24,157 bases of DNA. Source: Candidatus Omnitrophota bacterium (lineage in GTDB: Bacteria > Omnitrophota > Gorgyraeia > Gygaellales > Profunditerraquicolaceae). The position numbers and the translations under genes were made by a program. This document shows, one piece after another, positions 8,070 to 24,111 of this stretch. The notes under the pieces were generated by a model, which saw nothing but the letters and a program-made list of their open reading frames with translations, did not search any database and was not told the origin of the DNA. Numbering within the stretch: position 1 is the stretch's first letter; every line of letters starts with the position of its first letter. The stretch spans positions 1 to 24,157 of the forward strand of contig JAQTVG010000001.1 in NCBI GenBank assembly GCA_028706895.1, read 5' to 3'.

Positions 8070-9509
8070 ATGCCTATTTCCATATACAATTCCCTCACCC
8101 GAAAGAAAGAAGAATTTGTTCCTCTAAAACCGCCTGCGGTAAATATGTATGTGTGCGGGCCGACGGTTTATGATGAGCCGCATATCGGCCATGCCAGGAG
8201 CGCCTATATATTTGATGTAATACGCAGGTATCTTATATGCAGGGGCTATAAAGTAAAATTTGTCAGGAATGTTACCGACGTAGATGACAAGATTATTGAT
8301 AAGGCAAAAAAAGAATTCCCTGGTAAAGATTTGCTCAGCGCGGTCAAAGAAGTATCTAATAAATATCTCGATGCTTATCACGAAGATATGAAGCAGCTGG
8401 GTATTACGGCTCCTGACGTAGAGCCTAAGGCAACCGAGTTTATAAGCAAAGACAATCCTTCAATGCAGAAATTTATAACGCAGCTTATAGAACGGGGCGC
8501 GGCTTACGTCTCCGGAGGCGATGTGTATTTTGATATTAAAAAAGCGAAAAATTACGGAAAGCTATCAAACCAGTCTTTGGATAAAATGGAAGCAGGCGCA
8601 AGGGTTTTGGCTGGTGAGAATAAAAAAGACCCGTTAGATTTTGCTTTATGGAAAGCAGCAAAAGAAGGCGAGCCCGCCTGGGATAGCCCGTGGGGCAAGG
8701 GGAGGCCTGGCTGGCACATAGAGTGCTCCGTAATGAGCTCGGATATACTCGGAAAAGAATTTGATATCCACGGCGGAGGCATAGATTTAATATTCCCTCA
8801 CCACGAAAACGAAATCGCGCAGTCAGAAGGCGCCGGCAATACTTTTGCCAAATATTGGATTCACCACGGCCTTTTGACCATCAACAGCCAGAAGATGGCC
8901 AAGTCGCTTGGTAATTTCATTACGATAAAAGGTTTTATAAATAAATATAAATATCCGGACTTATTAAAATTATTTTTTCTCTCTACTCACTATGCTCATC
9001 CTATAGATTATACTGAAGAGAAAATTGAAGAAGCTAAAAAGGAATATGAGCGCATTGATATTCTAATGAGAAAATTAGATAGAGTATTTGGGACTAGGGA
9101 TATAAGTAAAACGACTACTGGAGGAATGGGTGATATAGGAAAATTTAAAGAAAAGTTTATTGAATATATGGACGATGATTTTAATACTCCGCGGGCATTA
9201 TCAGTTTTATTTGATATGATAAGTAGATGTAATATAGAATTGGATAGCGAAGACGAGTATAAGAATTTTAAATTGCGCTATGCTATGGATATAATAAAAG
9301 AAATAGCGGATATTTTCGGTTTAACTTTTCTTAAAGAGACGTCAACCGAAATGTCGGATACAAAAGTCACAGTTGCTATAGCTATGCGGGAACAATTAAG
9401 AAAAGAAAAGAAATTTAAGGAAGCTGACGAAATCAGAAGAGCGTTGGAAGAAAAAGGCGTTATTCTAGAAGATACAAAAAACGGCGTAACTTGGCGTCGT
9501 AAGTTATAA
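8070..9509 (+). CDS. cysS: Cysteine--tRNA ligase
   Basis: YVCGPTVYD, HIGH, DFALWK, WDSPWGKGRPGWHIECS, HGGGIDLIFPHHENE, KMAKSLGN and DDFNTPRA motifs. Confidence 0.97.
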   Translation: MPISIYNSLTRKKEEFVPLKPPAVNMYVCGPTVYDEPHIGHARSAYIFDVIRRYLICRGYKVKFVRNVTDVDDKIIDKAKKEFPGKDLLSAVKEVSNKYLDAYHEDMKQLGITAPDVEPKATEFISKDNPSMQKFITQLIERGAAYVSGGDVYFDIKKAKNYGKLSNQSLDKMEAGARVLAGENKKDPLDFALWKAAKEGEPAWDSPWGKGRPGWHIECSVMSSDILGKEFDIHGGGIDLIFPHHENEIAQSEGAGNTFAKYWIHHGLLTINSQKMAKSLGNFITIKGFINKYKYPDLLKLFFLSTHYAHPIDYTEEKIEEAKKEYERIDILMRKLDRVFGTRDISKTTTGGMGDIGKFKEKFIEYMDDDFNTPRALSVLFDMISRCNIELDSEDEYKNFKLRYAMDIIKEIADIFGLTFLKETSTEMSDTKVTVAIAMREQLRKEKKFKEADEIRRALEEKGVILEDTKNGVTWRRKL

Positions 9510-9511
9510 TA

Positions 9512-9679
9512 TTTAGCGGATGGCTTGGCTTGATTCACGCAGCATGTAGTTTATGCGAGCGGCCAGGGTTCACCTGCTAAGACGAAGTCGGTGAGAGCGA
9601 GCATAAACTCCAAGCGAGATTTTCCTCGGCGGGGAAAATCGAGCGGTGCTGCGGGAAGCAAGACAAGGCAACCGCTAAA
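9512..9679 (+). repeat. ~165-bp structured dispersed element, copy 1 (MITE-like element or ncRNA, unresolved)
   Basis: Closing stem 9516-9544 pairs with 9647-9675 (24/29 WC), extended by TTTA/TAAA. Inner 9-bp stem AGTTTATGC(9548-9556)/GCATAAACT(9601-9609) and hairpin GATTTTCC(9618-9625)/GGAAAATC(9633-9640). About 82% identical to the reverse complement of 23416-23574. Confidence 0.9.
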
Positions 9680-9692
9680 ATAGGCACAAATT

Positions 9693-17143: not shown

Positions 17144-18039
17144 CGCTGTTAAAAGATATCGGGGAATTCGGCTTGATTAGCAGGATAAGAAAATCAATAA
17201 AGACCGATGCCTCGGTTATAAAAGGTTCAGGCGATGATTGCGCGGTTTTAAAACTTGACAAAAACAGGTATCAGCTTTTTACCTGCGATATGATAGCAGA
17301 GGGAGTAGATTTTACGCTTAAAGATGGCCCGTATCTTATCGGTAGAAAGGCTTTGGCGGTTTCTATCAGTGATATTGCCGCTTGCGCAGGCCTGCCGCGT
17401 TATTGTGTTGTATCTCTGGGTATATCTAAACATACCCCGGTTAAATTTATAGATAAACTTCTTAAAGGTATTTTAACTATAGCCAAGAAATATAATGTTA
17501 ACCTTGTAGGCGGTGATATCAGCCGCGCAAAACAATTAACCATTGATGTGAGCATGCTGGGCGTTGTGGAGAAAAAGAATCTTGTATTAAGAAGCGGAGC
17601 CAGGGTGGGAGACGTTATTTTTGTTACGGGTAAACTCGGAGGCTCTATTCTGGGCAAGCACCTTAGCTTTACGCCGCGTTTAAAAGAAGCAAGGTTTTTG
17701 ACAAAGAATTTTAAGATAAATTCAATGATTGACATATCTGACGGCCTCACTCAGGACCTCGGTCATATCCTTGAAGAGAGCGAAAAAGGCGCGGTGATTT
17801 ACGCAGATTTAATCCCGGTAAGCAGGCAGGCACGTAACTTGAATGACGCGCTTTCTGCGGGCGAAGACTTTGAACTGCTTTTTACGATGCCTTTTAAAGA
17901 GGCAAAGAGGTTCCATAAGCGGGAGCTGCCCGGTTTTAAGGTTATCGGAGAAATCGTAGATAAGAAATATGGTTTCAGGTTGGTGGATAAACATGGTAAA
18001 GAAGAAGCTGTTAAGGCAAAAGGTTTCCGCCACTTTTAG
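17140..18039 (+). CDS. thiL: Thiamine-monophosphate kinase
   Basis: GEFGLI, GDDCAV, SISDIAA, GGDIS, IDISDGL and GEDFELLF motifs. Confidence 0.93.
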   Translation: MTLLKDIGEFGLISRIRKSIKTDASVIKGSGDDCAVLKLDKNRYQLFTCDMIAEGVDFTLKDGPYLIGRKALAVSISDIAACAGLPRYCVVSLGISKHTPVKFIDKLLKGILTIAKKYNVNLVGGDISRAKQLTIDVSMLGVVEKKNLVLRSGARVGDVIFVTGKLGGSILGKHLSFTPRLKEARFLTKNFKINSMIDISDGLTQDLGHILEESEKGAVIYADLIPVSRQARNLNDALSAGEDFELLFTMPFKEAKRFHKRELPGFKVIGEIVDKKYGFRLVDKHGKEEAVKAKGFRHF

Positions 18040-18122
18040 GGACGGTTCTCATTTACGGTTAAAAGTGTCCCTTTTAAATCGTAACGGGGACAGTTTTAAC
18101 CGTGTTTCAGAACCGTCCCTAA
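18036..18122. repeat. 87-bp REP/REPIN-like nested palindrome
   Basis: Perfect 14-bp terminal inverted repeat TTAGGGACGGTTCT(18036-18049)/AGAACCGTCCCTAA(18109-18122). Inner arms ACGGTTAAAA-G-TGTCCC(18055-18071) and GGGACA-G-TTTTAACCGT(18087-18103). Confidence 0.85.
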
Positions 18123-22566: not shown

Positions 22567-23292
22567 TTAATTAGCCAGGGTTAAAACGAATACGATACCT
22601 GCTCCGGCGTCTTTTAATGAACGGGCCGCTTCTGAACAGGTAGCGCCTGTAGTTAATACGTCATCAACCAGCAAAATATTTTTTCCTTTTATACCCTCTT
22701 TTTTATTTACCGTGAAACTATCCATTACATTTAAGAAACGCTCGCCTGTTTCTAATTCTGTCTGCGTTTTTGTCGGGCGCAGGCGGCTTAAGGCATCGGT
22801 GGATATTTGTTTGTTAAACTTACGGCAGATATGCTCGCTTAGGATTTGCGCCTGGTTAAATTCCCTTTCGCGTAACCTTGCTTTGTGTAATGGCACAGGC
22901 ATGATTAAATCCAGCATATCCATCGGCAGGTTGTATTCTTCTATAAATTCTGTCATTAATCCGGTTAAAATATGGCCAAGGTAGTCTTTGCCTTGATATT
23001 TAAATGCGTGGATTAATTCTTTAATCGTGCCTTCATATATGCAAGGGCTGAAGGCGCGGTCAAAATGCAGTTGTTTTCTTCTGCAGGCAGCGCAGACATT
23101 ATGCGTAACGGGTTTTTTGAGGTGCCTGCCGCAAGAGAAGCAGAAGGGGGGCGGGTTCTTTTTAATCTTGCCCCAGCATTCTATACATACAAAGTTATCT
23201 GCGCGCTCTTGTCTATCCAGTTGCTTTTTGCAGACAAGGCATGTCTTGGGATACATAATATCCGTCAGGACACCTAAAAACCTGCGCAACAT
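22567..23292 (-). CDS. comF: ComF-family protein (double zinc ribbon plus PRTase-like domain); start likely the second ATG at 23292
   Basis: Four CxxC pairs, FKY, VPLH...RLREREFNQA and PRPP-binding LLVDDVLTTGAT. The ORF-track start at 23298 abuts the predicted -10 box. Confidence 0.9.
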   Translation of the reverse strand: MLRRFLGVLTDIMYPKTCLVCKKQLDRQERADNFVCIECWGKIKKNPPPFCFSCGRHLKKPVTHNVCAACRRKQLHFDRAFSPCIYEGTIKELIHAFKYQGKDYLGHILTGLMTEFIEEYNLPMDMLDLIMPVPLHKARLREREFNQAQILSEHICRKFNKQISTDALSRLRPTKTQTELETGERFLNVMDSFTVNKKEGIKGKNILLVDDVLTTGATCSEAARSLKDAGAGIVFVLTLAN

Positions 23293-23298
23293 ATGCAT

Positions 23299-23327: not shown

Positions 23328-23410
23328 ACCATTCAATAAGAGACGATTTCCGAAGATATCGGTAAGATTATTAACCTAGGAAATTGTCTCTGACAATCGA
23401 TAGATAGAAT

Positions 23411-23574
23411 TTTTAGCGGCTGCCAAGGCTGTTTTCTCCCAGCACCGCTCGATTTTCCCCACCGTGGAAAATCTCGCTTGGATTTTCTGCTCGCTCTCAC
23501 TGATATCCTGATAGCGGGTGAACCTGGCCGCTCGCATAAACTACATGCTGTCCGAAAACAGCCTTGCCATCCGC
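23411..23574 (-). repeat. ~165-bp structured dispersed element, copy 2 (inverted relative to copy 1)
   Basis: The reverse complement aligns to 9516-9680 with one gap. Closing stem 23416-23444 pairs with 23546-23574 (24/29 WC), with compensatory changes relative to copy 1. Confidence 0.9.
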
Positions 23575-23595
23575 GAACAAACATCCCAAATTCGC

Positions 23596-23623
23596 TTGAC
23601 AATATATTCCATTTTGTTATATT
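23596..23623 (+). promoter_or_regulatory. Sigma70-type promoter for the pilin gene
   Basis: TTGACA(23596-23601)-16 nt-TATATT(23618-23623), with TG at 23615-23616. A second TATAAT lies at 23629-23634. Confidence 0.7.
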
Positions 23624-23632
23624 GAATATATA

Positions 23633-23651
23633 ATATTCCAGTATGGAATAT
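23633..23651. promoter_or_regulatory. Operator-like palindrome ATATTCCA-N3-TGGAATAT
   Basis: Perfect 8-bp inverted repeat between the promoter and RBS. A degenerate second copy ATATTCCA-N3-TGTTATAT is at 23604-23622. Confidence 0.6.
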
Positions 23652-23670
23652 AGCAAAAGAGGTAATAAGC

Positions 23671-24111
23671 ATGAAGATGGAAAAAGGTTTTACTCTCCTT
23701 GAATTAATCATCATAATTATTATTGTAGGTATCCTTGCTACCTTAGGCTTTACCACATACACTAATCAAATTGAATATTCTCGTACTGCCGAAGCCAGGG
23801 CGAAAATAAGTTTTATGCGTAAACTCGCGTATGAATATTACTTGAAGAATGGTTCGATAGATAGTATGACTAGTTCTGACCTAGGCATGAATACAGCTTG
23901 TCAGTCCACCGATTATTTTAGTTATTGGTATACTACTGGATATGGTTATCAGATAGGCGCTCGTAGGTGTACTAGTGGAGGGAAGTCACCAAATTCGGCT
24001 AGGGTCTATTTATTTGGGATTGTTATCGGAACTGATGTGTCTGGTAGCGTATGGCATTGTAGGTACAACGACGGTGCGTCTGAGGCTTGTTTCGGGTATC
24101 CCTCGTGGTAA
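23671..24111 (+). CDS. Type IV pilin (prepilin N-terminal cleavage/methylation domain protein)
   Basis: Short leader MKMEKG then FTLLELIIIIIIVGILA (G/F cleavage site, Glu5), helical SRTAEAR segment and four Cys in the C-terminal domain. GAGGT SD-like site upstream. Confidence 0.92.
   Translation: MKMEKGFTLLELIIIIIIVGILATLGFTTYTNQIEYSRTAEARAKISFMRKLAYEYYLKNGSIDSMTSSDLGMNTACQSTDYFSYWYTTGYGYQIGARRCTSGGKSPNSARVYLFGIVIGTDVSGSVWHCRYNDGASEACFGYPSW

Follow-up and report, generated by a model that had tools for sequence, protein, structure and literature searches.

A Family of Folded Intergenic Repeats in Omnitrophota with Features of Non-Autonomous Mobile Elements

Introduction

Two inverted copies of a folded element of about 170 nt lie in a stretch of DNA from a Candidatus Omnitrophota bacterium, and the question they raise is whether the element is a mobile repeat acting through a folded single strand or a multi-copy family of noncoding RNA. 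The window, by which we mean the whole stretch that was analysed (24,157 nucleotides), is contig C150 of the MAG G000 (1.31 Mb, 80% complete). DNA related to the window occurs in landfill and groundwater samples; the window itself had no match among public RNA runs. The original prediction, made from the sequence alone, had put forward both alternatives and had named the element the best candidate for an undescribed system in the window.

Omnitrophota and their neighbours, from groundwater and sediment, are uncultured and have small genomes with spacers full of folded repeats, among which the family described here is one of the best defined. It is carried by about one genome in three of the phylum, its copies are far better conserved than silent sites, and no enzyme, RNA family or paper in the literature searched accounts for it. 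The identity of whatever recognises its core would reveal either a new DNA-moving mechanism or a new and widespread RNA-protein system, and would also explain the slotting of accessory and defence genes between repeats. In practice, the family also interrupts MAG assemblies and yields spurious ORFs.

Results

Two Copies in the Window

A covariance model was built from 11 copies of G000 and was used, together with BLASTN, on the genome. In the window it delimits two full-length copies:

9512..9680, plus strand: copy 1, full length (covariance model, 190.5 bits)
23411..23578, minus strand: copy 2, full length (covariance model, 171.7 bits)

Copy 1 occupies the whole spacer between cysS and tmk, starting 2 nt after the cysS stop and ending 12 nt before the tmk start. 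Copy 2 is flanked by divergent genes, a comFC-like gene (22567-23298, minus strand) and a gene for a prepilin-type N_methyl protein (23671-24111, plus strand). A copy upstream of comFC is also present in G001, and none is found there in the other members of the genus.

The predicted similarity of the two copies was reproduced exactly by global alignment. Positions 9516-9675 align to 23416-23574 in reverse complement, with identity at 90 of 102 positions of the core (11 substitutions and one gap) and at 21 and 20 of the 29 positions in the two arms. Each copy keeps 24 of 29 Watson-Crick pairs in the closing stem, and the mismatches at stem positions 5, 8 and 22 are common to both. The same inverted pair was returned independently by a repeat finder, and with BLASTN (E = 3e-42) this places the similarity far above chance. 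Fold energies relative to shuffled sequences correspond to z of -6.6 for copy 1 and -4.5 for copy 2. The predicted internal stems fared unequally: the 9-bp stem and the GATTTTCC/GGAAAATC hairpin held, and the AGCGG/CYGCT stem is not supported by the family alignment, which favours a TCACC/GGTGA helix instead and places GAGCGG in a conserved internal loop.

ORFs of 86 aa (9278-9538, minus strand) and 107 aa (23333-23656, minus strand) cross the two copies; both are in all likelihood spurious, with a risk of being mis-annotated as genes. Copy 2 and three other copies or derivatives in G000 (on C95, C226 and C236) adjoin prepilin-type (N_methyl) genes, and the flanks of these copies carry sigma-70-like hexamers (TTGTAA-17-TATAAT). 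G000 has many such genes, and the adjacency may be no more than coincidence.

Copy Number and Distribution

The expectation of further copies was met. G000 has 12 full-length copies with mutual identities of 70-88%, and four that are internally deleted, namely one on C185 and three derivatives of about 85 nt (on C95, C103 and C226) that have lost the core between two CGAGCGG direct repeats. The covariance model detects the element in 28 of the 41 close relatives, at 1-24 copies per genome, and in 54 of 151 genomes sampled across Omnitrophota. Among metagenome contigs, a pattern with 27 specified bases matched at least 120 stretches. A looser genome-wide pattern matched many GC-rich genomes by chance, and only matches confirmed by the covariance model were counted.

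Confirmed copies outside the phylum occur in MAGs labelled Aminicenantes (G043), Acidobacteriota (G045) and several CPR groups, the CPR assignments resting on depositor labels only. In contigs with CPR labels the element lies inside core operons, at rpmC/rpsQ, near adk-secY, at rpsP/rnc and at folD/glyA. G043 has at least 90 copies of a version of about 148 nt, often within a hairpin of about 245 nt, and no match was found in 100 other genomes sampled from its phylum; such a distribution is typical of an element that was acquired horizontally and then burst. A MAG deposited as 'uncultured Planctomycetia bacterium' (G041, which is the same as G154; L154, CAZDBQ010000036.1) belongs to the same GTDB class as G000, and the G041 and G154 entries have identical coordinates and score. 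Deposited labels thus need care, and the Planctomycetia label is no evidence for another phylum.

With Rfam 15, in gathering-threshold and E-value modes, no family matched anywhere in the window, where both copies gave only noise (E 0.9-8.6), and none matched the divergent copies of other genomes, though tRNA and 6S RNA were detected in the same loci. A tRNA/tmRNA scan was likewise without result. A genuine 6S RNA (61.9 bits; L206:511-670, G021:C40) was found 1.3 kb from a copy and is separate from it, so the element is not the 6S RNA of this lineage. Plasmid and phage collections gave no match, a pattern scan of viral contigs returned 0 hits, and the literature searched on Omnitrophota repeats and noncoding RNA holds nothing on the element. 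The family is therefore uncatalogued as far as Rfam and the literature searched are concerned, and to that extent the element's standing as a candidate for an undescribed system held.

Fold of the Element

The element consists of a long closing stem, P1, that leads into a three-way junction from which two arms emerge, P2, which ends in an apical hairpin (P2b) beyond a conserved internal loop, and P3, a hairpin. In the coordinates of copy 1 the parts are as follows:

9512..9545, plus strand: P1 5' strand (TTTAGCGGATGGCTTGG...GCAGCAU); every P1 pair covaries
9547..9556, plus strand: P2a 5' strand (UAGUUUAUGC), partner at 9601-9609; compensation between subfamilies
9557..9569, plus strand: conserved GAGCGG and bulge (GAGCGG-CCAGGGU); columns nearly invariant
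9570..9594, plus strand: P2b hairpin (UCACC ... GGUGA) with variable loop; 98% paired, double changes in 4 of 4 pairs
9595..9609, plus strand: conserved GAGCGAG, then P2a 3' strand; from the family alignment
9610..9645, plus strand: junction CCAAGCGAG, P3 hairpin (AUUUUCC-UCGGCG-GGGAAAAU) and second CGAGCGG; P3 covaries fully
9646..9680, plus strand: P1 3' strand (GUGCUGC...CCGCUAAAA); covariation

This fold is established by covariation, and the inference that structure is being maintained held. Double compensatory changes were found in 25 of 50 predicted pairs among the 11 copies of G000 and in 48 of 50 in an alignment of 117 sequences drawn from numerous genomes and metagenomes. In the latter alignment 91% of cells are paired; shuffling lowers this to 59.6%, and sliding the partners by 1-3 columns to 48% or less. 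P2a is fully compensated between subfamilies (GUUUAUGC/GCAUAAAC versus GAAAAUUC/GAAUUUUC), and P3 has AU, UA, GC and CG alternatives at several positions. P1 ranges from 25 to more than 100 bp and varies in sequence as well as length among lineages, with the core of about 105 nt conserved; the whole element is about 170 nt long, and up to about 300 nt.

The conserved segments that are mostly unpaired are GAGCGG-S-CA-N-GGU, AGAGCGA, GAG, the P3 loop (consensus CC-N-CG-S-Y-GGGG) and CGAGCG. GCGAGC stands opposite GCGAGC twice, which read directly gives G-C, C-G, G.A, A.G, G-C, C-G; the GAGC within 9557..9569 opposes that of 9595-9601 and so forms tandem G.A pairs. A mutual-information scan returned one strong pair beyond the secondary structure, between the S of the bulge and the S of the P3 loop, with states GC in 163 sequences, CG in 17, U.G in 1 and mismatches in 3. 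In a tree from the remaining columns the C-G state is spread over about 6 separate clades. Together with its invariant neighbours, this covarying pair makes up a 3-bp pseudoknot between G-S-C of the bulge and the P3 loop.

The long form in Aminicenantes had suggested a core that inserts into the tips of pre-existing hairpins. This idea was ruled out because the 'empty' outer hairpins proved to be internal-deletion derivatives that still have the P1 stem.

Conservation in Place

The element is conserved in place. Between G000 and G005 the orthologous copies at cysS-tmk show 91% identity, compared with 77% for the flanking genes and 55-56% for their fourfold-degenerate sites. Homogenisation within a genome does not explain this value, since the paralogues of G000 are less alike (70-88%). 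In G006 the copy at the same locus is of the other subfamily, which indicates core replacement or conversion.

Some junctions are occupied repeatedly. Three genera carry a copy at the C124 junction, G000 and G017 at the identical point, and four carry one at the 5' side of a helicase gene. The cysS/tmk junction is also occupied in G022, with opposite orientation and different spacing, and this insertion is therefore independent. Repeated occupation of the same junctions could reflect a local function rather than tolerated sites of insertion.

Empty Sites and Target Duplications

Both the copy number and the gain and loss of copies between species are shown by the data. An empty-site comparison at cysS-tmk, proposed with the original prediction, found the two genes overlapping (ATGA) in G003, an empty site, and the element between them in G000, G005 and G006; the element is thus mobile. 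It also gave the cleanest case of target duplication, of 12 nt: the G003 target GTCGGAAAATAT is found on both sides of the element in G005, as GTAGGAAGTTAT and GTAGGAAATTAT. Among the genus relatives that matched, the C185 site is empty in five of five and the C98 site in three, the C98 insert in G000 being flanked by a 15-nt direct repeat. Flanking direct repeats of at least 10 nt accompany 3.5% of 142 copies versus 0.14% of mismatched controls. The lengths detected are 11, 11, 12, 15, 18, 22 and 36 nt, and most copies have none.

In each of three public runs, one contig joins 9475 to 9692 of the window and skips the interval of copy 1. It may represent the empty cysS-tmk site of a related organism; the content between the two sides is undetermined, and the public contigs matched to the window were only short and noisy. 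At the C185 spot (G000 C185:10540-11060), G002 and G003 carry a hairpin of about 45 nt with ends like the base of P1 (AAAGCGG…CCGCTTT), and G001 carries an unrelated hairpin. They may be what is left of old copies, or small hairpins of independent origin that share a favoured spot.

Orientation, Neighbours and Pairs

Most copies are solitary, and they are found within housekeeping operons such as cysS/tmk, rpmC/rpsQ, rpsP/rnc and folD/glyA. With genes called simply as longest ORFs, the folded strand is antisense rather than sense to co-directional genes by about 2:1 (58:31 in relatives, 21:14 in metagenomes). The bias is 8 to 2 in G043 and antisense in 18 of 20 in G030, whereas G000 itself leans the opposite way, towards sense. 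A copy between divergent genes trivially scores as 'upstream opposite, downstream same'. No gene is linked to the element, and no recurring neighbour protein family was seen in 80 metagenomic loci. A cis-regulatory leader or riboswitch would keep a constant orientation upstream of related genes; the element does not, occurring in both orientations beside unrelated neighbours. The possibility that the long-form copies of G043 precede one gene family was likewise ruled out, the downstream genes being unrelated.

A second, unrelated palindromic repeat of about 230 nt (…GCTGTRGGATTTGCTCGCGTGCTGAAAATCTTTGCC…) often lies directly 5' of the element, at six or more loci in four genomes, so that the spacers are mosaics of several hairpin families. 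The loci are:

G000 C164:2150-2420: second repeat
G000 C98:2940-3200: second repeat
G000 C147, upstream of 4679: second repeat
G005:C65, G006:C2 and G003:C3: second repeat

Doublets of the element were noted at C135, L207, L097, L129 and L074. Pairs within about 3.5 kb are head-to-head in about 15 cases, tail-to-tail in 2-3 and direct in 4-5. The head-to-head pairs either nearly touch (27-35 nt apart) or bracket 0.8-3.2 kb of DNA that encodes AbiGi, MazE with a PIN protein and an ATPase, a Zeta toxin, a trypsin-like protein or a tRNA. Neither four genus relatives nor G000 yielded the cargo of the pair at G002:C12.

These pairs suggest a rival explanation, that mobile gene cassettes use the elements as their hairpin ends or recombination sites, with a head-to-head pair delimiting a slot for the exchange of accessory genes. 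The excess of head-to-head pairs, the nature of the genes between them and the absence of the G002:C12 cargo from relatives speak for it, as does the core, a Y-shaped hairpin with repeated GAGCG. By analogy only, the T-shaped terminal hairpins of parvoviruses with their GAGC repeats, pdif and attC would be of similar design. Against it, the majority of copies stand alone within housekeeping operons, linkage to a recombinase or Rep gene is lacking, the terminal sequences depart from the R''/R' consensus of attC, and at least one doublet looks like a second insertion beside the first, with an 18-nt duplication. We regard the cassette explanation as very unlikely.

Strand Specificity: RNA or DNA

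Only one strand of the element folds well. In 136 of 137 copies the given strand has the more stable fold of the two, the mean difference from its reverse complement being -10.8 kcal/mol under RNA and -6.6 kcal/mol under DNA parameters, and G.U pairs number 205 versus 82 for A.C. This asymmetry, in folding energy and in the excess of G.U, does not separate RNA from single-stranded DNA. With T before it and A after it on both strands, the hairpin is not an intrinsic terminator in either direction. In metatranscriptome runs of three studies, 24-48% of sampled words of a G043 copy were present, with strand and ends undetermined.

A second rival explanation is that the element is a functional noncoding RNA family in many copies, or a set of RNA modules embedded in transcripts, which binds a host protein or acts in processing or stability, its spread being secondary. 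It is supported by the complex architecture, a branched fold with a tertiary pair and tandem G.A pairs, by purifying selection at single loci, by a hairpin that is compatible with read-through and lies inside operons, and by the metatranscriptome words. Against it stand the antisense bias of the folded strand in co-directional contexts, the lack of a conserved upstream promoter, which follows from flanks that differ from copy to copy, and the patchy burst in one genome of another phylum, which resembles a mobile element. The last three points, with the duplications, doublets and deletion derivatives, favour DNA. Whether RNA or single-stranded DNA is the acting form is undecided, and the reading as a mobile repeat holds either way. 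Between the two alternatives with which the inquiry opened, the evidence favours the mobile element that acts through a folded strand; a multi-copy noncoding RNA remains possible and is not excluded.

Candidate Enzymes

The original prediction had suggested looking for copies beside an HUH/RAYT transposase, a GIY-YIG or HNH nuclease or a reverse transcriptase, and no such linkage was found. A third rival explanation is that the elements are REPIN-like and are moved by resident RAYT-type Y1 (HUH) transposases. Y1_Tnp genes are present in 32 of 41 relatives, with 4 in G000 and 12 in G030, which is also the richest in copies (24). Single-strand folding, inverted doublets and long persistence are features of REPINs (PMC3116915; bioRxiv 10.1101/2021.07.10.451892), and the strand-specific fold, the doublets and the persistence of the element recall them.

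Several observations speak against this explanation. The Y1 genes of G000 (C15, C189) and G043 (C191) are flanked by short REP-type inverted repeats of their own, and no copy of the element adjoins any Y1 gene. G028 (94% complete) and G022 each have 10 copies and no Y1 gene, whereas G019 has 8 Y1 genes and no copy; among CPR-labelled genomes too, copies occur without any Y1 gene having been found. Target duplication is not a product of HUH transposition, and yet one is seen here. Across the 41 genomes, element and Y1 gene occur together in 23, the element alone in 5, the Y1 gene alone in 9 and neither in 4, a count that rests on related MAGs in which several other repeat families share the Y1 genes. 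We consider mobilisation by the resident RAYT-type enzymes unlikely.

The RAYT-like Y1 genes with their own repeats are at G000 C15:1-900 and C189:3100-4320. One has a 30-nt inverted pair that also occurs on C203, C40, C65 and C153, and the other has 70-nt palindromic repeats downstream. The window itself contains a different imperfect palindrome, at 18036-18122 before tsaE, whose 41-nt arms are 83% complementary and contain GGGACGGTT. The latter resembles the inverted repeats (AATTGGGGACGGTTTA) that flank the RAYT-like Y1 gene in G043:C191, and the palindrome may belong to a true RAYT-associated repeat family.

The last rival is a SINE-like non-autonomous retroelement, copied via a structured RNA. 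Target duplications of variable length and the RNA-like fold would suit it. Reverse transcriptase (PF00078) occurs in only 4 of 41 relatives, and was found neither in G000 nor in G043 with its copies numbering at least 90. For lack of the enzyme this model was rejected, and we consider it all but excluded.

Discussion

On balance, and with moderate confidence, we prefer to regard the element as an uncatalogued family of non-autonomous, structure-dependent mobile repeats of the REPIN/ERIC/bcr1 type, moved in trans and partly domesticated. In the proposed mechanism one strand, as transient single-stranded DNA or as RNA, would fold into the long imperfect P1 hairpin capped by the core of about 105 nt. 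With its three-way junction, its two self-complementary GCGAGC/GCGAGC modules containing tandem G.A pairs and its bulge-loop pseudoknot, the core would be a platform for recognition by a factor encoded elsewhere. This factor would copy the element into spacers between genes by way of staggered cuts in the target, which would leave direct duplications of variable length, and the copies retained would then come under purifying selection. It is because they are kept under such selection that we consider them at least partly domesticated. The trans-acting factor, the insertion at staggered cuts and the host role of retained copies are inferred only.

Several points weigh against this reading. No mobilising enzyme was identified among the candidates examined (reverse transcriptase, Y1 and the neighbouring genes). 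Duplications accompany only a minority of copies and are 11-36 nt long; to our knowledge no well-known class of bacterial transposase gives duplications so variable, apart from a few IS4/IS1182-type elements. A purely selfish repeat would not be expected to keep its old copies so strongly conserved, and a bulge-loop pseudoknot with tandem G.A pairs is more typical of functional RNAs.

A bolder reading can also be entertained, and it is offered as a possibility only. The core could be recognised by an unknown kind of trans-acting system for mobilisation or maintenance, either a protein or a hijacked host machine, that copies a folded single strand into staggered cuts across phyla; or the head-to-head pairs could be the hairpin ends of a new class of mobile cassette for defence genes.

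Comparison with Known Systems

Returning to the preferred reading, that of a mobile repeat moved in trans, the nearest comparison is with REP and REPIN sequences. The element shares with them a gene-less, intergenic existence, single-strand folding, occurrence singly or as inverted doublets, long persistence and vertical inheritance (PMC3116915), and RAYT-like genes occur in genomes that carry it. In contrast to REPs, which are simple hairpins of 20-40 nt, it is about 170 nt long and branched, with a three-way junction and a pseudoknot, and unlike REPINs, in which the mobile unit is the inverted doublet, it is mostly single. It departs from REP/REPIN-RAYT systems also in that the resident RAYT genes are flanked by other repeats, that copies occur where no Y1 gene was found and that targets are duplicated.

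ERIC or IRU of enterobacteria, the bcr1-type elements of the Bacillus cereus group and Correia or NEMIS of Neisseria are imperfect palindromes of 100-170 bp. Like the element, they are intergenic, often transcribed, found in both orientations, provided with compensatory stems and gained or lost between close relatives. They are not known to have transposases of their own, and the same is true of the element. There is no sequence similarity between them and the element. Those repeats are essentially rod-shaped, keep their terminal inverted repeats conserved and make short duplications of fixed length (TA, TTTAT). In the element, by contrast, conservation lies in the branched apical core and the ends differ, duplications are long and of variable length, and the distribution extends across phyla.

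MITEs derived from DDE insertion sequences are likewise small, have terminal inverted repeats, duplicate their targets, burst in single genomes and can flank cargo as pairs. The terminal repeats of the element differ from theirs in that they covary and vary by lineage (TTTAGCGGNTGGCTTGG versus TTAAGGGGAGAGGGCAAGGG), and the length of the duplication is not fixed. No parent IS with the ends of the element was found; in G000 no half-sites flank an ORF, and no neighbouring gene recurs.

With the attC sites of integrons (57-141 nt, an overlapping length) the element has in common a fold of one strand, which in attC is the recombination site, and the link of attC to small accessory and toxin-antitoxin genes recalls the cargo of the pairs. 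By direct reading of the sequence its ends, TTTAGCGG ... CCGCTAAA, do not fit the consensus RYYYAAC/GTTRRRY. Its copies are dispersed or in inverted pairs rather than in direct arrays, no integrase is linked and, unlike attC, the core is strongly conserved in sequence. By the features tested the element is thus a member of none of these families, and in kind it stands closest to the REPIN, ERIC and bcr1-type elements.
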